A DNA stretch of 64,000 nucleotides from Escherichia coli (GTDB taxonomy: Bacteria; Pseudomonadota; Gammaproteobacteria; Enterobacterales; Enterobacteriaceae), in assembly GCF_013122565.1 (NCBI RefSeq), contig NZ_CP053258.1; one strand, given 5' to 3'. Positions 21,990-44,388 of this stretch are shown one piece after another; within the stretch, counting starts at the first letter, position 1, and the number at the start of each line of letters is the position of its first letter. The position numbers and the translations under genes are program-made. Under the pieces are notes generated by a model. That model was not told where the DNA came from. It made no database searches and worked only from the letters and a program-made list of their open reading frames with translations.

Positions 21990-22300
21990 AGCAATAACAG
22001 CGTTACGGTGCACCACGCCTGACTGAAGAACTGCGTGCTCAGGGTTACCACTTCAACGTAAAACCGTGGCAGGAGGTCCGGACTGAAAAAACTGCTCAGG
22101 ACATTATCGGCAGGGTACGCACTGGTAGTCTGTAAACTGAACCGACTGGGGCGCAGTATGTGGCATCTTGTCGTGCTGTTGGAGGAGCTGTGCGGACGTG
22201 GTATTAACTTTCGTGCTCTGGCCCAATCTATATTTGCCCAACAATGGGGGGACGGAAGCTGTAAAAGTAAAATAATCTGCGATCTCAGATTTATTGAGTG
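21990..22300 (+). pseudogene. pinH: Frameshifted remnant of a Pin/Hin/Gin-family serine DNA invertase (pinH-like)
   Basis: One frame translates to [52 protein letters not shown], which aligns well with Pin/Gin …PGLKRALKRLQKGDTLVVWKLDRLGRSMKHLISLVGELRERGINFRSLTDSI…; upstream similarity continues only after a frameshift, and no N-terminal catalytic Ser region or C-terminal HTH is present. Confidence 0.55.
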
Positions 22301-22639
22301 ATTTTTATGTGAGCAGAAGATATTCATCAGAAACGATTATGTAAATCATTTTATTTTGCCGACTGCCTGATTGTCGAAAGAAAAGAATACGCCCGTGTTT
22401 CCTGAATAGATTGACTTTTTTATCCAACCACACTTCAGCGCACTGCGTTTAAAAAATGCCTCATTCTTATGCGGAATATCATCATTTCATCATGATGTCT
22501 TTGATGAGCGGTGAACACAATACACTTGCGCTGTCTCTTCAGGATGAATCCCCTGGTCTGGTGCCTGTGGGCTGATGTTGCAGCAAAGCTAAGGTCGCTT
22601 AAACGCTACTCAGTATTCACTTTTCAGAGGATGAAATTT

Positions 22640-25600
22640 ATGAACAGGACCAGTCCCTATTATTGTCGTCGCTCAGTACTTTCCTTATTGATATCTGCCT
22701 TGATATATGCCCCGCCCGGGATGGCTGCCTTCACTCCTGATGTTATTGGTGTGGTAAACGATGAGACTGTAGATGGCAGCCAACGAGTAGATGAACGAGG
22801 TACAACAAATAACACTCATATTATCAACCATGGCCAGCAGAATGTTTATGGCGGGGTATCTAATGGAAGTCTTATTGAATCTGGTGGATATCAAGATGTA
22901 GGAAGGCATAACAATTATGTGGGGCAGTCTAATAATACAACCATTAACGGGGGCAGACAGACAATTCATGACGGGGGTATTTCCACAGGTACGATAATCG
23001 AGAGTGGCAATCAGGACGTTTATACAGGTGGTATCAGCAATAGAACGACAATTAAGGGTGGTAATTCACACATAAGTGGGGGGACTGCGAATGGCACAAT
23101 CATTGATGGTGGCAGCCAACGAGTAACAACTCAGGGGCATGTCGACAGTACAACGATAAATAAGTCTGGCTCTCAGGACATCACGCAAGGAAGTCTGGCA
23201 ACGAACACCATCATAAATGGTGGTCGACAGTATGTTGAACAGAGCACAGTAGAAACAACCACCATTAAAAATGGCGGTGAGCAAAGAGTATATGAGAGCC
23301 GTGCGCTGGACACGACGATTGAAGGCGGAACTCAGTCTCTGAATAGTAAGTCAACGGCAAAAAATACGCAGATCTATTCTGGTGGCACGCAAATTGTTGA
23401 TAACACCAGCACCTCGGATGTTATTGAAGTTTATTCCGGTGGCGTGCTTGATGTTAGTGGTGGTACGGCAACAAATGTTACCCAGCACGATGGTGCAATT
23501 TTAAAAACTAACACTAACGGTACGACGGTGAGCGGTACGAATAGTGAAGGTGCATTCTCCATCCACAATCACGTGGCAGACAATGTGTTGCTGGAAAACG
23601 GTGGTCATTTAGACATAAACGCATATGGTTCGGCAAACAAGACGATTATTAAAGATAAAGGAACAATGTCAGTTTTAACCAATGCTAAAGCTGATGCGAC
23701 CCGAATAGATAATGGCGGGGTTATGGATGTTGCAGGAAACGCGACAAATACCATAATTAATGGTGGCACACAGAATATTAATAATTATGGCATAGCCACA
23801 GGCACCAATATCAACAGCGGAACGCAAAATATCAAAAGCGGCGGGAAAGCTGACACAACAATTATATCCTCCGGGAGCCGGCAGGTTGTTGAGAAAGATG
23901 GTACGGCAATTGGCAGCAATATTAGCGCCGGAGGCTCGCTGATTGTCTATACCGGCGGTATTGCACATGGGGTTAACCAGGAGACGGGCAGTGCTTTAGT
24001 TGCCAACACGGGTGCAGGGACTGATATCGAAGGATACAACAAGCTCTCTCACTTCACTATTACCGGAGGGGAGGCTAATTATGTTGTGCTGGAAAATACC
24101 GGCGAACTGACGGTAGTGGCTAAAACCTCGGCGAAAAATACTACCATTGATGCTGGCGGTAAGCTGATTGTCCAGAAGGAGGCTAAAACAGATAGCACCA
24201 GACTTAATAATGGCGGCGTTCTGGAGGTTCAGGATGGTGGTGAGGCTAAGCATGTTGAGCAACAATCCGGCGGCGCATTAATTGCTTCCACGACTTCCGG
24301 AACACTTATCGAAGGAATCAACAGTTATGGTGATGCTTTCTACATCAGGAATTCAGAAGCTAAAAATGTAGTGCTGGAAAACGCTGGCTCATTAACAGTC
24401 GTCACTGGTTCCCGGGCAGTTGATACGATTATTAATGCCAACGGCAAAATGGATGTTTATGGAAAAGATGTTGGCACTGTACTCAATAGTGCTGGCACCC
24501 AAACAATATATGCCAGTGCCACTTCTGATAAAGCAAATATCAAAGGTGGCAAGCAAACGGTATATGGTTTAGCCACTGAAGCAAATATCGAAAGTGGTGA
24601 ACAAATTGTTGATGGTGGGTCAACAGACAAAACGCACATCAATGGCGGTACGCAAACCGTTCAGAATTATGGTAAGGCAATCAATACCGATATCGTCTCT
24701 GGCCTACAACAAATTATGGCAAACGGGACAGCGGAAGGTTCCATTATTAATGGCGGTTCACAGGTAGTTAATGAGGGCGGTCTGGCTGAAAATTCGGTGC
24801 TTAATGACGGCGGCATACTCGATGTGCGGGAGAAAGGCAGCGCAACGGGGATACAGCAGAGTAGCCAGGGCGCTTTGGTTGCAACCACCAGGGCGACGCG
24901 GGTCAAAGGAACACGCGCGGATGGCGTCGCGTTCAGCATCGAGCAGGGTGCGGCGAACAATATCCTGCTGGCAAATGGCGGCGTGTTAACCGTGGAGTCA
25001 GACACCTCTTCTGACAAAACACAGGTCAAGACGGGCGGACGGGAGATCGTCAAAACAAAAGCCACTGCGACAGGCACGACGCTCACCGGCGGTGAACAAA
25101 TTGTCGAGGGTGTGGCGAATGAGACAACAATTAACGACGGCGGAATACAAACAGTTTCAGCTAACGGAGAGGCAATAAAAACAAAGATCAATGAAGGCGG
25201 TACGCTGACAGTCAACGATAATGGCAAAGCGACAGATATCGTCCAGAACAGCGGTGCCGCTCTCCAGACGAGCACGGCTAACGGTATTGAAATCAGCGGT
25301 ACTCACCAGTACGGCACTTTTTCCATTGTCGGCAATTTAGCGACCAATATGTTGCTGGAAAATGGCGGTAATTTATTGGTATTAGCAGGTACCGAAGCTC
25401 GCGACTCCACGGTTGGCAAGGGTGGGGCAATGCAAAACCTGGGTCAGGACTCCGCTACAAAGGTTAACTCTGGCGGGCAATATACCCTTGGGCGGTCAAA
25501 AGATGAGTTTCAGCCTCTGGCCCGGGCAGAAGATCTCCAGGTCGCTGGCGGTACGGCAATCGTCTACGCAGGTACGCTGGCGGATGCATCGGTCAGTGGC

Positions 25601-27220
25601 GCGACAGGAAGCCTGTCGTTAATGACGCCACGGGATAATGTTACGCCAGTTAAACTCGAAGGGGCGGTCCGGATTACCGATAGCGCGACATTAACTCTGG
25701 GAAATGGCGTCGATACAACGCTTGCCGACCTGACGGCTGCCAGCCGGGGCAGTGTCTGGCTTAACAGCAATAATTCCTGTGCAGGTACCAGCAACTGCGA
25801 ATATAGAGTAAACAGTTTGCTACTCAACGACGGTGATGTTTATTTATCAGCACAAACAGCTGCGCCTGCCACAACTAACGGTATCTACAATACGCTGACA
25901 ACCAATGAACTTTCCGGTAGCGGTAATTTCTACCTGCATACCAACGTTGCTGGCTCCCGCGGTGATCAACTGGTCGTCAGCAACAACGCCACTGGTAATT
26001 TTAAAATCTTTGTTCAGGATACCGGCGTCAGCCCTCAGTCTGACGATGCGATGACGCTGGTGAAAACAGGGGGAGGGGATGCGTCGTTTACGCTGGGCAA
26101 TACCGGCGGTTTCGTTGATCTTGGGACCTATGAGTATGTCCTGAAAAGCGACGGCAACAGCAACTGGAACCTGACCAATGATGTCAAACCCAACCCGGAC
26201 CCCAACCCAAATCCAAAGCCAGACCCAAAACCCGATCCAACGCCAGACCCAAATCCAAAACCAGACCCGACTCCCGAGCCAACGCCGACACCCGTTCCGG
26301 AGAAACGCATTACGCCTTCTACGGCAGCCGTACTCAATATGGCAGCAACATTACCGTTGGTATTTGATGCTGAGCTAAACAGTATTCGCGAGCGGTTGAA
26401 CATAATGAAAGCGAGTCCACACAACAATAATGTCTGGGGGGCGACGTATAACACCCGTAATAATGTCACCACCGATGCGGGGGCTGGGTTTGAGCAGACG
26501 CTGACCGGAATGACAGTGGGGATCGACAGTCGTAATGATATTCCTGAAGGGATTGCCACGCTGGGCGCTTTTATGGGCTATTCACATTCACATATCGGTT
26601 TTGATCGCGGAGGACATGGCAGTGTGGGCAGTTATTCTCTGGGCGGCTATGCCAGTTGGGAACATGAAAGTGGTTTTTATCTGGACGGTGTCGTGAAGCT
26701 GAACCGTTTTGAAAGTAACGTAGCCGGTAAAATGAGCAGCGGTGGAGCCGCCAACGGCAGTTATCGCAGCAACGGGCTGGGCGGTCACATTGAAACCGGG
26801 ATGCGATTTACCGATGGTAACTGGAACCTGACGCCGTATGCATCGTTAACGGGGTTCACCGCTGATAACCCCGAATATCATTTATCCAATGGCATGGAAT
26901 CGAAATCAGTCGATACTCGCAGTATATATCGCGAACTGGGCGCAACGCTGAGTTACAACATGCGTCTGGGGAACGGTATGGAAATTGAGCCGTGGCTGAA
27001 GGCGGCTGTACGCAAAGAATTTGTCGATGATAACCGGGTGAAGGTGAATAATGACGGTAATTTCGTCAATGATTTGTCGGGCAGACGTGGAATATACCAG
27101 GCAGGTATTAAAGCCTCATTCAGCAGTACGTTAAGCGGGCATCTCGGGGTGGGGTATAGCCATGGTGCCGGTGTGGAATCACCGTGGAACGCGGTAGCTG
27201 GTGTGAACTGGTCGTTCTGA
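22640..27220 (+). CDS. ypjA: AIDA-I/YpjA-type autotransporter adhesin (type Va secretion)
   Basis: Track ORF 22511..27220; start placed at MNRTSPYYCRRSVLSLLISALIYAPPGMAA (extended signal peptide, SD agagga upstream) giving 1526 aa. Long passenger with ~19-residue degenerate repeats (…T.INGG.Q.V…GG…), Pro-rich linker KPNPDPNPNPKPDPKPDPTPDPNPKPDPTPEPTPTPVP, C-terminal beta-barrel ending …GVNWSF. Confidence 0.9.
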   Translation: MNRTSPYYCRRSVLSLLISALIYAPPGMAAFTPDVIGVVNDETVDGSQRVDERGTTNNTHIINHGQQNVYGGVSNGSLIESGGYQDVGRHNNYVGQSNNTTINGGRQTIHDGGISTGTIIESGNQDVYTGGISNRTTIKGGNSHISGGTANGTIIDGGSQRVTTQGHVDSTTINKSGSQDITQGSLATNTIINGGRQYVEQSTVETTTIKNGGEQRVYESRALDTTIEGGTQSLNSKSTAKNTQIYSGGTQIVDNTSTSDVIEVYSGGVLDVSGGTATNVTQHDGAILKTNTNGTTVSGTNSEGAFSIHNHVADNVLLENGGHLDINAYGSANKTIIKDKGTMSVLTNAKADATRIDNGGVMDVAGNATNTIINGGTQNINNYGIATGTNINSGTQNIKSGGKADTTIISSGSRQVVEKDGTAIGSNISAGGSLIVYTGGIAHGVNQETGSALVANTGAGTDIEGYNKLSHFTITGGEANYVVLENTGELTVVAKTSAKNTTIDAGGKLIVQKEAKTDSTRLNNGGVLEVQDGGEAKHVEQQSGGALIASTTSGTLIEGINSYGDAFYIRNSEAKNVVLENAGSLTVVTGSRAVDTIINANGKMDVYGKDVGTVLNSAGTQTIYASATSDKANIKGGKQTVYGLATEANIESGEQIVDGGSTDKTHINGGTQTVQNYGKAINTDIVSGLQQIMANGTAEGSIINGGSQVVNEGGLAENSVLNDGGILDVREKGSATGIQQSSQGALVATTRATRVKGTRADGVAFSIEQGAANNILLANGGVLTVESDTSSDKTQVKTGGREIVKTKATATGTTLTGGEQIVEGVANETTINDGGIQTVSANGEAIKTKINEGGTLTVNDNGKATDIVQNSGAALQTSTANGIEISGTHQYGTFSIVGNLATNMLLENGGNLLVLAGTEARDSTVGKGGAMQNLGQDSATKVNSGGQYTLGRSKDEFQPLARAEDLQVAGGTAIVYAGTLADASVSGATGSLSLMTPRDNVTPVKLEGAVRITDSATLTLGNGVDTTLADLTAASRGSVWLNSNNSCAGTSNCEYRVNSLLLNDGDVYLSAQTAAPATTNGIYNTLTTNELSGSGNFYLHTNVAGSRGDQLVVSNNATGNFKIFVQDTGVSPQSDDAMTLVKTGGGDASFTLGNTGGFVDLGTYEYVLKSDGNSNWNLTNDVKPNPDPNPNPKPDPKPDPTPDPNPKPDPTPEPTPTPVPEKRITPSTAAVLNMAATLPLVFDAELNSIRERLNIMKASPHNNNVWGATYNTRNNVTTDAGAGFEQTLTGMTVGIDSRNDIPEGIATLGAFMGYSHSHIGFDRGGHGSVGSYSLGGYASWEHESGFYLDGVVKLNRFESNVAGKMSSGGAANGSYRSNGLGGHIETGMRFTDGNWNLTPYASLTGFTADNPEYHLSNGMESKSVDTRSIYRELGATLSYNMRLGNGMEIEPWLKAAVRKEFVDDNRVKVNNDGNFVNDLSGRRGIYQAGIKASFSSTLSGHLGVGYSHGAGVESPWNAVAGVNWSF

Positions 27221-27232
27221 CCATCAACGAAA

Positions 27233-27255
27233 AAGCCCACATCTGTGGGCTTTCA
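27233..27255 (+). terminator. Putative intrinsic terminator after ypjA
   Basis: aaaaagcccacatctgtgggctttc: GC stem gcccac/gtgggc followed by a short T tract. Confidence 0.45.
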
Positions 27256-27380
27256 TGTTACCAGGAGCCGCGGCTCCTTTGCGTATCCTTTTTTGTCTCC
27301 TCACCGTCTGGTCGGTGTCCTGCTGAGACTGCTAACTTCCTGTTTTTGTTGGTGTTGTCCTTACACCGTCCAATCATGAT

Positions 27381-27743
27381 TGGTGGAGCTGGCGGGAGTT
27401 GAACCCGCGTCCGAAATTCCTACATCCTCGGTACTACATGCTTAGTCAGTCTTTACATTCGCTTGCCAGCTGCGGACGGACACGCCACTAACAAACTAGC
27501 CTGATTAAGTTTTAACGCTTCAACCCCAGGCAGGGCTTCCACGCGATCTCTTTTGGGTTTGACCTCTCTTGATCCCCGTCCTAAGAGCGGAGGCTAGGGA
27601 GAGAGGGCTCTAAGCAGGTTATTAAGCTGCTAAAGCGTAGTTTTCGTCGTTTGCGACTATTTTTTGCGGCTTTTTACGAGGCCAACCGCCCCTCGGCATG
27701 CACCTTGGGTTTCGCAAATCCCGTCGAATCCAGAATCAGCCCC
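27381..27743 (-). ncRNA. ssrA: tmRNA (SsrA), 363 nt
   Basis: Reverse complement reads GGGGCTGATTCTGGATTCGACGGGATTTGCGAAACCCAAGGTGCATGCCGAGG … and contains the tag reading frame GCAAACGACGAAAACTACGCTTTAGCAGCTTAA (ANDENYALAA*) and the tRNA-like 3' end …GGGTTCAACTCCCGCCAGCTCCACCA. Confidence 0.96.
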
Positions 27744-27957
27744 AATGTGTAACGGCAAGTATACCAGATTTATGAGCGCCATGACCAGCCTCAATGGCGT
27801 TATCGTTAAAGATTTAGCACCCATGTAGCCTGATTTTTATTCGATTAAGCAATGGAATGGCAACATTTGTGTCGGATGTGATAACCAATAAGATGTTCAT
27901 TCGCGCCGCCGGAGAGGGAGGCGCGGTGAGGAACTGGTCAATAATTGGAGTGCAGGT

Positions 27958-36901: not shown

Positions 36902-37071
36902 TCGGCCTGGCTTGTTTGCCATTTTGGCACCGGGGTGTGCTCGTCATCCTCACGTACTGCGTGTACGCTCCGGTGACTGCGCGCACTCCGGCACCAAACT
37001 GGCTGCACCGCCGACGGCCTTTTACAGCAGAGTTAGCAACTGTTGATTGCAATTTCCGCAAAAATGAGTAA

Positions 37072-37398
<327 letters not shown>

Positions 37399-37416
37399 TC
37401 TGTCACGGTGGTCATG

Positions 37417-37965
37417 ATGAGCAAACAACTCACCGCGCAAGCACCTGTTGATCCCATCGTTTTGGGAAAAATGGGTTCGTCTTACGGTATTCGTGGGTGG
37501 CTCAGAGTGTTTTCTTCCACCGAAGACGCCGAAAGCATTTTTGACTATCAGCCCTGGTTTATCCAGAAGGCGGGTCAGTGGCAGCAAGTCCAGCTGGAAA
37601 GCTGGAAGCACCACAATCAGGACATGATCATCAAGCTGAAAGGCATTGACGATCGTGATGCGGCGAACCTGCTGACGAATTGTGAAATTGTCGTGGATTC
37701 ATCGCAGCTGCCTCAGCTTGAAGAGGGGGACTACTACTGGAAAGACCTGATGGGCTGCCAGGTAGTAACCACTGAAGGCTACGATCTCGGTAAAGTCGTC
37801 GATATGATGGAAACCGGATCCAATGACGTTCTCGTCATTAAGGCAAACCTGAAAGATGCGTTTGGTATCAAGGAACGTCTCGTACCGTTCCTCGATGGGC
37901 AGGTTATCAAGAAAGTCGATCTCACTACTCGTTCAATCGAAGTAGATTGGGATCCTGGTTTTTAA
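37417..37965 (+). CDS. rimM: 16S rRNA processing protein RimM
   Basis: Start taken at [28 protein letters not shown] (182 aa); operon rpsP-rimM-trmD-rplS. Confidence 0.92.
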
Positions 37966-37995
37966 ACCACCGGATAAACGGTAAAAGACGGCGCT

Positions 37996-38763
37996 ATGTG
38001 GATTGGCATAATTAGCCTGTTTCCTGAAATGTTCCGCGCAATTACCGATTACGGGGTAACTGGCCGGGCAGTTAAAAATGGCCTGCTGAGCATCCAGAGC
38101 TGGAGTCCTCGCGACTTCACGCATGACCGGCACCGTACCGTGGACGATCGTCCTTACGGCGGCGGACCGGGGATGTTAATGATGGTGCAACCCTTGCGGG
38201 ACGCCATTCATGCAGCAAAAGCCGCGGCGGGTGAAGGCGCAAAGGTGATTTATCTGTCACCACAGGGACGCAAGCTTGATCAAGCGGGCGTCAGCGAACT
38301 GGCAACGAATCAAAAATTGATTCTGGTGTGCGGTCGCTACGAAGGTATAGATGAGCGCGTGATCCAAACCGAAATTGACGAAGAATGGTCAATCGGCGAT
38401 TACGTTCTCAGTGGTGGTGAGTTACCAGCAATGACGCTGATTGACTCCGTTTCCCGGTTTATTCCGGGAGTACTGGGACATGAAGCCTCAGCAACAGAAG
38501 ATTCCTTTGCTGAAGGATTGCTGGATTGCCCGCACTATACGCGGCCTGAGGTGTTAGAAGGGATGGAAGTTCCGCCAGTGTTACTGTCGGGCAACCATGC
38601 CGAGATACGTCGCTGGCGTTTGAAACAGTCGCTGGGCCGTACCTGGCTTAGAAGACCTGAACTTCTGGAAAACCTGGCTCTGACTGAAGAGCAAGCAAGG
38701 TTGCTGGCGGAGTTCAAAACGGAACACGCACAACAGCAACATAAACATGATGGGATGGCGTAA
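37996..38763 (+). CDS. trmD: tRNA (guanine37-N1)-methyltransferase TrmD
   Basis: 255-aa [34 protein letters not shown]… (SPOUT fold). Confidence 0.95.
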
Positions 38764-38801
38764 GCCCCCGAGATATCAGTTTACCCAGGATAAGAGATTA
38801 A

Positions 38802-39152
<351 letters not shown>

Positions 39153-39182
39153 GATTTCGCTTAAGCGACATCCTGTTAAGAA

Positions 39183-39211
39183 GGGCTGGCCAATTGGCTG
39201 GCCCTTTTTTT
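39183..39211. terminator. Intrinsic terminator after rplS (possibly bidirectional with yfiB)
   Basis: gggctggcc-aatt-ggctggccc hairpin followed by T7 run; 30 nt after the rplS stop and 18 nt before the yfiB stop. Confidence 0.65.
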
Positions 39212-39228
39212 ATCTGTTTGCTCGTGTT

Positions 39229-39711
39229 TTAAGGGGTAGTAATCACCACTGCGACGCGGCGGTTCTCGGCGCGGCCCTGGGCGGTCTTGTTACTGGCTAT
39301 GGGATATTTTTTTCCTAAACCCTGTGTGGTGAGATTGCTGCGCGGAATTTGTCCACCCTTAGCCCATGCATCGGCCACGACATTCGCCCGTTTCAATGAT
39401 AAGCCTTCGTTGTAACTGTCTTCACCATAGTTATCGGTGTGTCCATCCATACGGGCATGTGTTAGCCCTGTCGAGGCCAATTTGGCTGCCATGGTTTGGA
39501 TCTGTTGCTGGCTTTCCGGGAGCAATTTGTAGTCATTTTTGGCGAACAGAATGGCATCTGATAAGCCCAGCGACCAGTCGCCGGCGGATTCAGTAAATCC
39601 ATAAGATTGCATAGCGGCGACTTGCTCAGGAGTAAACTTTCCCTGAGGGGACTGGCAGCCAGTCAGTATTAGTGAGGTGAAAATCAGGGGTGCTACCAGG
39701 TGCTTTATCAT
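39229..39711 (-). CDS. yfiB: OmpA-family outer-membrane lipoprotein YfiB
   Basis: 160-aa ORF with lipobox LTGC and OmpA-like peptidoglycan-binding C-terminus (…NRRVAVVITTP). Confidence 0.85.
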   Translation of the reverse strand: MIKHLVAPLIFTSLILTGCQSPQGKFTPEQVAAMQSYGFTESAGDWSLGLSDAILFAKNDYKLLPESQQQIQTMAAKLASTGLTHARMDGHTDNYGEDSYNEGLSLKRANVVADAWAKGGQIPRSNLTTQGLGKKYPIASNKTAQGRAENRRVAVVITTP

Positions 39712-39726
39712 ATCGATATATCCTTG

Positions 39727-40953
39727 TTATCTCACCAGCTTTTCGGCACGCTGGTGTTTGGCCTGATACATATTGTGATCGGCAAGCTCTTGTAATTTTT
39801 CCGCAGAGGCGTGCTCAATGGTCATCGCGTAACCAATGCTTAATGTCATGGTGGTCTGATAGCCATTATGAAGATCAAACGGGAGATTAAAGATTTGTGT
39901 CAGTGCTGAACATATCTGCTGCACTTCAGATTCCGACTGTACATCATAGAGCACCATAGCGAATTCATCGCCGCCTATGCGGTATGCTTTATGTCGCAGC
40001 CCGCCAAATTCAGCTAACCGTTTTGCGATTTCAATCAAGACTCGATCGCCCGTCGCATGACCCCAGGTATCATTGATATATTTGAAATTATCGCCATCAA
40101 GAAATAGTAACGCCGACGTTTTTCGGGCATCGGAACTGTTCATCAACGTGTTGATACCGCTACGAAACGCTGCGCGGTTAGCCAGCCCGGTTAATGGGTC
40201 ATGTAGTGCGGTACGTAGAAGCTGCGCATTTTTGGCCTGTAAACGAAGCTGCCACTCTTCCATTTCATCCAGCAGACTGTTGAAGTCGAGAGCGAATCGG
40301 TGAAACTCAGCGATACGTTCTTCCGAAACTCGTCGGGAAAAATTGCGGTTGGAACGCACATCATGTACGACATCGGTGATATTTTTCAGCGCTTCCACCA
40401 GGCCATTGTGCAAATGGCGGGTGAGGGTAATTGCGATGCCTGATGCCAGCAGAATACAACCGGTCAGTACGGCGAGCGAAAACCAGATAAAATGGCTGAT
40501 TGAACTGTCGCGAGCGGTTAAGCGTACTTCGCCAATGGTTTCACCATTGTGACGAATCGGCTGAATAATGGGGGCAGGGAAGAGCCAGTGGCTTATGAAA
40601 TTGCTGAAAGTATCGCCTGGATCCTTACGGGTGTAATGCCAGGATGCCAGAATATTTTGCTGCTTATCACGTACTTCTGCAGTTGAAAATTGCCCTTGCT
40701 GGCCCAGCGCTGCCAGTGTTTCAGTTGCTGCAGGGCCATCGGCAAAAACGACAGCTGCTTCCAGACTGTAAGTCATTGTTGCTGCTGTCAGTGCCAGGTT
40801 TTTTTGCGCGTACTGTTTCAGGGTCAGCACCGAGGTCACGGAAAGCAGCAACCAGATCAGCATCATAGTGATAAATATGCTGGTCATACTGATGTTGCGT
40901 AATGCTCTTTTAAACGTGGGGCGCTTATTAAGAGAATTATCGTTATCCATCAT
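39727..40953 (-). CDS. dgcN: Membrane diguanylate cyclase DgcN (YfiN), GGDEF domain
   Basis: 408-aa ORF with TM/HAMP region and GGDEF motif (…[11 protein letters not shown]…). Confidence 0.88.
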
Positions 40954-41461
40954 TTTTCTTCCGTGCGAGCATTAAGACATCCGGGTTGACCTTTACACCG
41001 CTACGCGATAAGGCATCCAGGTTTACGGCAAATCTGACGTCATTATTGTGGATGATCAGACAAAAGGCGCTACCAATAATGCACTCGGTATTTTGTTCGG
41101 CAATTAATAATAACGCCTTTGACGGATATTGTTCGGTTAATTCCATCTGGAATGTCGGTGACTCGTTGCCAAAATAAAAACCATTGCAGCCTGAAATCAT
41201 CGCCTCTTGTTGAGTGTGAATGATGACAGGCAGATAAGGCAAAGATGTCGCGGCATTCTCTTGTAGGGCGGTACTAAAACGTGAAGATGAAAAGATACAT
41301 AACTTTGGTGGCCCTGATAGCGCAGGCCAGCGGGTGTAACTGACAATACCGGAAACCATCATACGCACGTTTTTCGCAACGTCAGAAGGCTCCTGAGCGA
41401 GTATTGGTGCTCCCGTCAGCAGGAGAATCAGAAGTAAGAACAGTCGGTGAGAAAAACGCAT
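40943..41461 (-). CDS. yfiR: Periplasmic DgcN inhibitor YfiR
   Basis: 172-aa ORF with signal peptide; overlaps dgcN start by 11 nt (operon yfiRNB). Confidence 0.85.
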
Positions 41462-41610
41462 TCAGGGATCCCCACCATCTTCGCTCGAAATGCATCGATA
41501 TTTTTTCAGAATGCTCATTAAAATATCATTTTTTCATGCGATCGTCATCAATGTGAGAAATAAAACACAATGAGTAAAATCTTATGTTTAATTTATTTGT
41601 GGGGTTTTAA

Positions 41611-41976
41611 TTAATTTAATCGTATTGTGCTGGCATTTTCATCAGTCCCTTTTTGCCAAACTTCATGCAGTTGGCTGGCATTTTCAACATTGTTACAGCT
41701 GGCAGGAAAGCTTTTACCGGAAAGTCCCCGGGCATAAGTAAAATCGGTCTGGCAAGTTTTCTTTTGTCCTTCGGCATATCCTTTAAGGTATAGACCGCGA
41801 TCCGCCTGTGAATCGCTAAATGCATCGTCATCTTTTATGGCGCTGCCCGATATCGCATCTTCCATACCGACATCATACCAGTCGGTGCTGGTCAAGGTTG
41901 GCGCGTGAGTATAAGGATCAATCTGACATCCGCTAACCAGTAAAGCCAACAAGGGGGCGATAAACTTTTTCATCAT
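41611..41976 (-). CDS. yfiL: Lipoprotein YfiL (DUF2799)
   Basis: Start chosen at MKKFIAPLLALLVSGC (lipobox), 121 aa; the track ORF is 13 codons longer. Confidence 0.75.
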   Translation of the reverse strand: MMKKFIAPLLALLVSGCQIDPYTHAPTLTSTDWYDVGMEDAISGSAIKDDDAFSDSQADRGLYLKGYAEGQKKTCQTDFTYARGLSGKSFPASCNNVENASQLHEVWQKGTDENASTIRLN

Positions 41977-42021
41977 TTCTTTCTCCTTTTTCAAAGCATA
42001 GCGGATTGTTTTCAAAGGGAG

Positions 42022-42091
42022 TGTAAATTTATCTATACAGAGGTAAGGGTTGAAAGCGCGACTAAATTGCCTGTGTAAATAAAAATGTACG
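42022..42091. promoter_or_regulatory. TyrR boxes of the aroF-tyrA promoter
   Basis: tgtaaatttatctataca (42022-42039) and tgtaaataaaaatgtacg (42074-42091) resemble TGTAAA-N6-TTTACA; located 95-165 bp upstream of the aroF start. Confidence 0.6.
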
Positions 42092-42185
42092 AAATATGGA
42101 TTGAAAACTTTACTTTATGTGTTATCGTTACGTCATCCTCGCTGAGGATCAACTATCGCAAACGAGCATAAACAGGATCGCCATC

Positions 42186-43256
42186 ATGCAAAAAGACGCG
42201 CTGAATAACGTACATATTACCGACGAACAGGTTTTAATGACTCCGGAACAACTGAAGGCCGCTTTTCCATTGAGCCTGCAACAAGAAGCCCAGATTGCTG
42301 ACTCGCGTAAAAGCATTTCAGATATTATCGCCGGGCGCGATCCTCGTCTGCTGGTAGTATGTGGTCCTTGTTCCATTCATGATCCTGAAACTGCTCTGGA
42401 ATATGCTCGTCGATTTAAAGCCCTTGCCGCAGAGGTCAGCGATAGCCTCTATCTGGTAATGCGCGTCTATTTTGAAAAACCCCGTACCACTGTCGGCTGG
42501 AAAGGGTTAATTAACGATCCCCATATGGATGGCTCTTTTGATGTAGAAGCCGGGCTGCAGATCGCGCGTAAATTGCTGCTTGAGCTGGTGAATATGGGAC
42601 TGCCACTGGCGACGGAAGCGTTAGATCCGAATAGCCCGCAATACCTGGGCGATCTGTTTAGCTGGTCAGCAATTGGTGCTCGTACAACGGAATCGCAAAC
42701 TCACCGTGAAATGGCCTCCGGGCTTTCCATGCCGGTTGGTTTTAAAAACGGCACCGATGGCAGTCTGGCAACGGCAATTAACGCTATGCGCGCCGCCGCC
42801 CAGCCGCACCGTTTTGTTGGCATTAACCAGGCAGGGCAGGTTGCGTTGCTACAAACTCAGGGAAATCCGGACGGGCATGTGATCCTGCGTGGTGGTAAAG
42901 CGCCGAACTATAGCCCTGCGGATGTTGCGCAATGTGAAAAAGAGATGGAACAGGCGGGACTGCGCCCGTCTCTGATGGTAGATTGCAGCCACGGTAATTC
43001 CAATAAAGATTATCGCCGTCAGCCTGCGGTGGCAGAATCCGTGGTTGCTCAAATCAAAGATGGCAATCGCTCAATTATTGGTCTGATGATCGAAAGTAAT
43101 ATCCACGAGGGCAATCAGTCTTCCGAGCAACCGCGCAGTGAAATGAAATACGGTGTATCCGTAACCGATGCCTGCATTAGCTGGGAAATGACCGATGCCT
43201 TGCTGCGTGAAATTCACCAGGATCTGAACGGGCAGCTGACGGCTCGCGTGGCTTAA
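42186..43256 (+). CDS. aroF: Tyr-sensitive DAHP synthase
   Basis: Start at [27 protein letters not shown]… (356 aa); the track ORF is N-terminally over-extended. Confidence 0.95.
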
Positions 43257-43266
43257 GAGGTTTATT

Positions 43267-44388
43267 ATGGTTGCTGAATTGACCGCATTACGCGATCAAA
43301 TTGATGAAGTCGATAAAGCGCTGCTGAATTTATTAGCGAAGCGTCTGGAACTGGTTGCTGAAGTGGGCGAGGTGAAAAGCCGCTTTGGACTGCCTATTTA
43401 TGTTCCGGAGCGCGAGGCATCTATGCTGGCCTCACGTCGTGCAGAGGCGGAAGCTCTGGGTGTACCGCCAGATCTGATTGAGGATGTTTTGCGTCGGGTG
43501 ATGCGTGAATCTTACTCCAGTGAAAACGACAAAGGATTTAAAACACTTTGTCCGTCACTGCGTCCGGTGGTTATCGTCGGTGGTGGCGGTCAGATGGGAC
43601 GTCTGTTCGAGAAGATGCTGATACTCTCGGGTTATCAGGTGCGGATTCTGGAGCAACATGACTGGGATCGAGCGGCTGATATTGTTGCCGATGCTGGAAT
43701 GGTGATTGTTAGTGTGCCCATTCATGTTACTGAGCAAGTTATCGGCAAATTACCGCCTTTACCGAAAGATTGTATTCTGGTTGATCTGGCATCAGTGAAA
43801 AATGGACCGTTACAGGCCATGCTGGCGGCGCACGATGGCCCGGTACTGGGGTTACACCCAATGTTCGGTCCGGACAGCGGTAGCCTGGCAAAGCAAGTTG
43901 TGGTCTGGTGTGATGGACGTAAGCCGGAAGCATACCAATGGTTTCTGGAGCAAATTCAGGTCTGGGGCGCTCGGCTGCATCGTATTAGCGCTGTCGAGCA
44001 CGATCAGAATATGGCGTTTATTCAGGCTCTGCGCCACTTTGCTACTTTTGCTTATGGGCTGCACCTGGCAGAAGAAAATGTTCAGCTTGAGCAACTTCTG
44101 GCGCTCTCTTCGCCGATTTACCGCCTTGAACTGGCGATGGTTGGGCGACTGTTTGCTCAGGATCCGCAGCTTTATGCCGACATTATTATGTCGTCAGAGC
44201 GTAATCTGGCGTTAATCAAACGTTACTATAAGCGTTTCGGCGAGGCGATTGAGTTGCTGGAGCAGGGCGATAAGCAGGCGTTTATTGACAGTTTCCGCAA
44301 GGTGGAGCACTGGTTCGGCGATTACGCACAGCGTTTTCAGAGTGAAAGCCGCGTGTTATTGCGTCAGGCGAATGACAACCGCCAGTAA
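43267..44388 (+). CDS. tyrA: Bifunctional chorismate mutase / prephenate dehydrogenase (T-protein)
   Basis: 373-aa [36 protein letters not shown]…. Confidence 0.95.

Follow-up and report, generated by a model that had tools for sequence, protein, structure and literature searches.

In the window, a 64,000-nucleotide stretch of Escherichia coli DNA, three co-directional and tightly packed minus-strand genes follow one another in the order yfiR - yfiN - yfiB that characterizes YfiBNR modules. The first, yfiR (40943..41461, minus strand; ORF of 172 aa), encodes a periplasmic repressor of DgcN with an N-terminal signal peptide, the second, dgcN or yfiN (39727..40953, minus strand; ORF of 408 aa), an inner-membrane diguanylate cyclase, and the third, yfiB (39229..39711, minus strand; ORF of 160 aa), an outer-membrane OmpA/Pal-like lipoprotein. 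The neighbourhood is that of K-12: beyond yfiR follow yfiL, aroF and tyrA, beyond yfiB rplS, trmD, rimM and rpsP. An earlier note had described a complete YfiR/DgcN/YfiB module at this place, and its gene identities, order and coordinates proved exact, with all three proteins scoring above the respective NCBIfam equivalog cut-offs. ORFs on the plus strand within the module do not exceed 90 aa and are without support.

Direct reading of the sequence bore out the reported 11-nt overlap between the yfiR stop and the dgcN start (40943..40953, minus strand), which reads ATGATGGATAA on the coding strand and is likely a translational-coupling junction. The overlap shortens to 8 nt if dgcN starts at the second in-frame ATG. 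The dgcN Shine-Dalgarno sequence GGAAG precedes the first ATG by 4 nt and the second by 7 nt, and the RefSeq annotation of K-12 places the dgcN start at the first. The spacer between dgcN and yfiB (39712..39726, minus strand) comprises 15 nt, includes the Shine-Dalgarno sequence AAGGA and is the same as in K-12. Upstream of the module, the AT-rich yfiL-yfiR intergenic region of 149 nt (41462..41610, minus strand), which presumably harbours the yfiRNB promoter and 5' UTR, differs from K-12 by a single substitution. A sigma-70 promoter scan found no minus-strand site within this spacer, and the 6 sites it called compare with 5.1±2.2 by chance. An Rfam scan of both strands of positions 37000-44000 (E<=1) gave no match, and hence neither the module nor the DNA adjoining it contains a known RNA element.

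At the other end, yfiB converges with rplS (38805-39152, plus strand) across a spacer of 76 nt, in which the sole strong hairpin is found at 39178-39209. It begins 19 nt past the yfiB stop and is the only hairpin downstream of this gene. Read on the rplS strand, it forms the intrinsic terminator of rplS, that is, of the trmD operon (39178..39211, plus strand), consisting of a 14-bp stem that includes two G·U pairs, an AAUU loop and a U7 tract, with a folding energy of -22.3 kcal/mol. In line with this, a very strong 3' end in K-12 Term-seq data on the rplS strand (2744124; read scores 192,836 and 95,327; PMC7815308, supplementary file 1) maps by exact sequence context to position 39212 of the window, directly after the U tract.

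The hairpin had been described as shared between yfiB and the convergent rplS. It is indeed physically common to both 3' ends, but the GC-rich stem followed by a U-tract, which a bidirectional intrinsic terminator would display on both strands, is present on the rplS strand only. That the structure is nevertheless a genuinely bidirectional terminator, ending the transcripts of both genes, appears to us possible, if rather less probable than the one-sided reading. The convergent spacer holds no other stable structure, and the minus-strand version of the hairpin, although the two G·U pairs turn into two C·A mismatches, persists with 6+3 bp (-14.7 kcal/mol). Upstream of this minus-strand hairpin runs an A7 tract, a feature typical of bidirectional terminators. 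Against such a role, the minus-strand tail UUCUUAAC contains only 4 U in 8, and the terminator scan called the hairpin on the plus strand alone. A 3' end on the yfiB strand at the hairpin is absent from the published K-12 Term-seq tables (PMC7815308), but this negative evidence is weak because yfiRNB is poorly expressed. A literature search for a shared yfiB/rplS terminator returned nothing. The hairpin is thus shared physically, and a terminator of yfiB only putatively.

The three proteins carry the hallmarks of their families. YfiR matched the Pfam family DUF4154, 'YfiR/HmsC-like' (E 4.9e-31), as well as the NCBIfam equivalog sequest_YfiR (168 bits; cut-off 85), and starts with a hydrophobic N-terminus (residues 3-25). 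Its alignment with solved P. aeruginosa YfiR structures (E 1e-16) brought both cysteine pairs into register, such that Cys55, 92, 127 and 134 correspond to the pairs Cys71-Cys110 and Cys145-Cys152, the latter of which is needed for folding of the P. aeruginosa protein (PMC4887326). By these features, YfiR of the window qualifies as a secreted member of the DUF4154 family whose disulfide cysteines are conserved.

For DgcN, Pfam placed a CHASE8 domain at residues 45-146 (E 1.2e-33) and a GGDEF domain at residues 249-403 (E 2.3e-42), and the protein scored 500.9 bits against the NCBIfam DgcN/YfiN equivalog (cut-off 325). Hydrophobic segments on either side of CHASE8 (residues 20-46 and 150-179) show the YfiN architecture of two predicted transmembrane helices enclosing a periplasmic sensor, followed by a GGDEF domain that should be catalytically competent. 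No HAMP domain was matched in DgcN by a Pfam search at E<=10, whereas PMC4992967 terms the linker between the second transmembrane helix and GGDEF a HAMP linker. Residues 17-232 resemble the N-terminal module of YfiR-associated histidine kinases in NCBIfam, with an E value of 8e-23 and a score below the cut-off of that model.

The integrity of the GGDEF motif and of the I-site had been singled out as points to check. A regular-expression search of the translation found the GGDEF motif intact at residues 327-331, encoded by GGC GGC GAT GAA TTC (39961..39975, minus strand), and in an alignment with P. aeruginosa TpbB, whose catalytic domain has been solved and whose GGDEF domain matched DgcN with E 8e-29, a 19-residue stretch of DgcN corresponds residue for residue. 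The I-site check, in turn, presumed a site that DgcN does not have. In the register of the primary I-site (39991..40002, minus strand), residues 318-321 read GLRH, and RxxD was not found anywhere in the 408-aa translation. DgcN thereby lacks the RxxD five residues upstream of GGDEF that marks product-inhibited diguanylate cyclases of the PleD/WspR type. The K-12 protein likewise has GLRH, because all three substitutions between the two DgcN proteins sit elsewhere, and E. coli YfiN is reported to be natively devoid of both primary and secondary I-sites, as are more than 90% of YfiN homologues (PMC10127611). When the I-sites were rebuilt in E. coli YfiN by converting GLRH to RxxD together with 'N280'R, growth arrest by GTP depletion was abolished (PMC10127611). 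Absence of the I-site from DgcN is thus native and functionally important, and not a sign of decay. The predicted secondary I-site residue is given as 'N280' in PMC10127611, which is at odds with the serine that occupies residue 280 in both K-12 and window DgcN in the 408-aa numbering; even if N273S of the window fell at that position, neither asparagine nor serine would supply the arginine required at a secondary I-site.

YfiB combines a Pfam OmpA domain (residues 55-151, E 2.4e-18) with strong matches to the NCBIfam models PRK09967 (348 bits; cut-off 155) and OMP_LP_YfiB (232 bits; cut-off 128) and to the P. aeruginosa YfiB structures (E 4.6e-32). Its translation contains the lipobox L-T-G-C at residues 16-19 (39655..39666, minus strand), with Cys19 as the predicted lipidated residue and Gln at position +2, in alignment with the LAGC of P. 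aeruginosa YfiB. The peptidoglycan-binding residues N68, D102, G105 and R117 of the P. aeruginosa protein are represented by N59, D93, G96 and R108, and the YfiR-contacting residues F48 and W55 by F39 and W46. Judged by these features, YfiB is a lipoprotein that has an OmpA/Pal-like domain for peptidoglycan binding and, towards its N-terminus, a segment for binding YfiR.

These architectures fit the published mode of action of the system, for which we draw on the literature with regard to repression, sequestration and phenotypes: YfiR repression, its release by reductive stress or YfiB, and the c-di-GMP phenotypes have all been reported (PMC4992967, PMC10127611, PMC4887326). In the window, the three genes would be co-transcribed from the minus strand across the overlapping yfiR/dgcN junction, and DgcN would act as an inner-membrane cyclase with a periplasmic, PAS-like CHASE8 sensor, two transmembrane helices and a cytoplasmic GGDEF domain, kept in the off state by binding of periplasmic YfiR. 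Under reducing or redox stress, the disulfide-dependent YfiR would misfold and free DgcN, while under envelope stress the peptidoglycan-binding YfiB in the outer membrane would, according to the Pseudomonas model, sequester YfiR with the same result. Freed DgcN would then produce c-di-GMP, lowering motility and raising cellulose and biofilm formation. In E. coli, DgcN is in addition reported to arrest division: envelope stress sends the protein to the division site, where it works via FtsZ and ZipA (PMC4992967). Growth arrest would follow from runaway GTP consumption, since DgcN is without feedback I-sites; on gluconeogenic carbon, the I-site-less cyclase has been reported to deplete GTP until growth stops (PMC10127611).

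The tripartite logic worked out in Pseudomonas may hold for E. coli only in part. DgcN activity could be set essentially by the redox state of YfiR and by transcription, making the cyclase chiefly a factor that arrests growth and division in response to stress, with YfiB as an accessory or serving a separate envelope role. YfiN still relocates to mid-cell under envelope stress in a yfiB knockout, Salmonella is without yfiB, and native YfiN is too scarce to be seen (all PMC4992967); the dependence of GTP-depletion growth arrest on I-site absence (PMC10127611) and the reported effects of YfiB on virulence in Shigella flexneri (PMC8948675) point the same way. On the other hand, the counterparts of F48 and W55, which touch YfiR in the P. 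aeruginosa co-crystal, and the residues for peptidoglycan binding are conserved in the window YfiB, and yfiB is tightly linked, following dgcN after 15 nt, and matched in nearly all complete E. coli genomes. On balance, we consider this restricted reading unlikely, though a serious contender.

A further layer of control may reside in yfiR itself. Native YfiN expression is very low and requires transcriptional activation (PMC10127611, PMC4992967), and Rho-dependent 3' ends inside yfiR are contained in published K-12 data, where they were left undiscussed. Using supplementary files 2 and 3 of PMC7815308 and exact sequence context, we mapped the region of these ends to 41165..41381 on the minus strand of the window. 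It is bounded by a yfiR-internal 3' end at K-12 position 2741955, 80 nt into the ORF (Rho score 2.89; PMC7815308), corresponding to window position 41381, and by the peak of a Rho termination region at K-12 position 2742171 (Rho score 3.62, p 9e-13), corresponding to 41165, downstream of which reads increased from 71 to 348 with bicyclomycin (PMC7815308). An orphan K-12 3' end that precedes the yfiR ATG by 3 nt (PMC7815308) maps to 41464. The yfiRNB genes do not appear in the SMRT-Cappable-seq supplements (PMC6131387).

As yfiR is identical to its K-12 counterpart, the same Rho-dependent 3' ends are to be expected in the window, and premature termination in yfiR would limit expression of the distal genes here as well. 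Such termination agrees with reports of a native YfiN that can scarcely be detected and needs transcriptional activation. A bolder proposal, which we put forward as speculative and regard as improbable, is that termination 80 nt and ~300 nt into yfiR constitutes a regulated attenuation point, which would hold down transcription of dgcN and yfiB and keep the ratio of YfiR to DgcN high, up to the point at which a signal suppresses Rho, for instance by altering yfiR translation or secretion. If true, attenuation within yfiR would help to explain the long-noted silence of native dgcN.

Alignment with the K-12 operon, which the earlier note had recommended, revealed neither a frameshift nor a length change in any of the three genes. 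yfiR (b2603 in K-12) and rplS are 100% identical to K-12 at the DNA level. dgcN differs by 13 nucleotides that result in three amino-acid changes (N273S, L326I and H365Y), and yfiB by 5 nucleotides and two amino-acid changes (V10I and M118K), giving 5 amino-acid changes in total over the three proteins. The L326I exchange, located directly before GGDEF, arises from a two-base change of CTG to ATA, a rare codon. Its 41-mer sequence context was found in 98 out of 5426 complete E. coli genomes, so that L326I is a minority allele circulating naturally.

Public genomes place the locus firmly in the E. coli chromosome. A 2551-bp query covering it was matched in 5425 of 5426 complete E. coli genomes, in every case on the chromosome, and in 5368 of them a single place covered >=80% of the query. 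The exact DgcN protein is encoded on 231 public E. coli contigs, including one complete chromosome, and the exact YfiB and YfiR proteins on at least 1000 contigs each. No complete genome was identical over the 2551 bp; the closest ones (for example LHM10-1 and AH04) reached 99.7% identity. Differences between the window and its best match lie in the 5' half of dgcN, at one yfiR position, in the yfiL-yfiR spacer and in yfiL. Most of these dgcN positions, and the one in yfiR, have the K-12 base in the window, which therefore represents a mosaic of common alleles. In some other E. coli strains, IS1 is inserted in yfiR or IS1203 in yfiB.

The intactness of the genes, their domain architecture, the state of the motifs, the conservation of contact residues and the near-identity with the K-12 operon were all determined directly for the window, and we conclude with great confidence that the locus is the intact chromosomal yfiR-dgcN(yfiN)-yfiB operon, a core-genome c-di-GMP signalling module of E. 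coli. The statement that this is a known system holds, given the near-identical K-12 operon, the exact proteins already public, the solved structures of homologues and an extensive literature; the operon is ordinary and intact, and nothing is unusual about the copy in the window. Functional decay of the module, such as has befallen certain c-di-GMP genes in individual lineages of E. coli and Shigella, could be argued from the three DgcN substitutions, one of them adjoining GGDEF, and from the insertion elements in other strains, but is extremely improbable, as all three ORFs are full length with K-12 starts and stops, the GGDEF motif and the catalytic stretch aligned with TpbB are preserved, scores lie far beyond the equivalog cut-offs, identical proteins recur in hundreds of isolates and the change from L to I before GGDEF is conservative. 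An inactive cyclase or pseudogene was rejected for this strain on these grounds.

The intact operon is expected, from its near-identity to K-12, to behave like the K-12 allele, including YfiR repression and its relief by YfiB or redox stress. The points counted against our reading of the locus are the minority L326I allele, the missing Pfam HAMP match, a role of YfiB that is less established in E. coli than in Pseudomonas, and the very low native expression. For annotation, this means that the strain should possess a working YfiR/DgcN/YfiB stress-to-c-di-GMP pathway, probably including the I-site-less 'runaway' cyclase. What is left to pursue is modest: the minority allele with Ile before GGDEF, the Rho-dependent 3' ends in yfiR and the effect of the rplS terminator on yfiB transcripts.

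Compared with known systems, the locus is closest to that of K-12 MG1655 (b2603-b2605), with which it shares gene order, lengths, starts, stops, the 11-nt overlap, the 15-nt spacer and the flanking genes, as well as the intact GGDEF and absent I-site; the rplS terminator tract is T7 in the window versus T6 in K-12. A homologous tripartite system is HmsCDE of Yersinia pestis, composed of the YfiR-like HmsC, the cyclase HmsD and the YfiB-like HmsE, which are likened here by family name and published description; HmsCDE is reported to control the biofilm of flea blockage (PMC5550408). The YfiBNR/TpbB system of P. aeruginosa (PA1119-PA1121) has the same three-component architecture and gene order, its solved structures matched all three window proteins at the E values given above, and the YfiR disulfide cysteines as well as the peptidoglycan-binding and YfiR-contact residues of YfiB are conserved between the two. 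The cyclases differ in their feedback site: P. aeruginosa TpbB keeps the primary RxxD five residues before GGDEF (RESD-LVARL-GGDEF), whereas E. coli DgcN has a 2-residue gap and GLRH in its place, and division arrest and GTP-depletion growth arrest have been reported for E. coli and Salmonella (PMC10127611, PMC4992967).

Within the GGDEF domain region of the diguanylate cyclase DgcN, codon 326 of dgcN (window 39976-39978) reads ATA (Ile) instead of the CTG (Leu) of E. coli K-12. The resulting L326I exchange requires a two-base change, introduces a rare codon and directly adjoins the GGDEF motif on its upstream side. The 41-nt context carrying this ATA codon was found in 98 of the 5426 complete E. 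coli genomes searched.

The 2551-bp yfi-locus query matched 5425 of these genomes, of which 57 contained no place covering at least 80% of it. In strain XJ5.2, an IS1 element apparently splits yfiR, which encodes the periplasmic repressor of DgcN, and YfiR is annotated twice there. In strains NT1N25, NT1W25, and CUVET18-789, it is the yfiB end that carries an IS element, the IS3-family IS1203. These IS-carrying loci are natural knock-outs, in which DgcN could be derepressed or decoupled.

In the divergent yfiL-aroF spacer (window 41977-42116), approximately 19 differences within ~100 nt separate the window from the genome closest to it in the yfi genes, and at all of these clustered positions the window is identical to K-12. 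The difference cluster together with the K-12 match suggests a recombination breakpoint near yfiL. At the other end of the locus, the U-tract of the terminator of rplS, convergent with yfiB, comprises seven Ts in the window (39205-39211) and six in K-12. A further polymorphism was observed in the ffh-rpsP intergenic region, where a segment of ~112 nt (window 36902-37013) is present or absent depending on the genome: it is missing in LHM10-1, otherwise the closest genome, and the spacer measures 248 nt in both the window and K-12. A 131-nt query across the segment gave a single-copy match in 2225 of the 5426 complete genomes.

The stretch 22511-27743 comprises a gene for an AIDA/pertactin-type autotransporter (1569 aa), annotated as YpjA/EhaD in related genomes, and, ~160 nt from its end, the tmRNA gene ssrA (27381-27743); a tRNA with CAT anticodon lies at 19538. 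Because the best identity of window 19400-27800 to any complete E. coli genome is only 96.9%, the autotransporter gene is, judged by sequence identity, a divergent ypjA allele. No stretch of prophage size lies between ssrA and this gene in the window; in K-12, ssrA is adjoined by the CP4-57 prophage.

In K-12, Term-seq and bicyclomycin data place Rho-dependent 3' ends within the yfiR coding sequence, one 80 nt and another ~300 nt from its start, and a further 3' end 3 nt upstream of the ATG (PMC7815308 supplements); the main-text passages covered do not discuss them. Across the corresponding region inside and just upstream of yfiR (window 41165-41464, minus strand), the window is identical to K-12, and the Rho-dependent 3' ends in yfiR could be a reason for low native dgcN expression.
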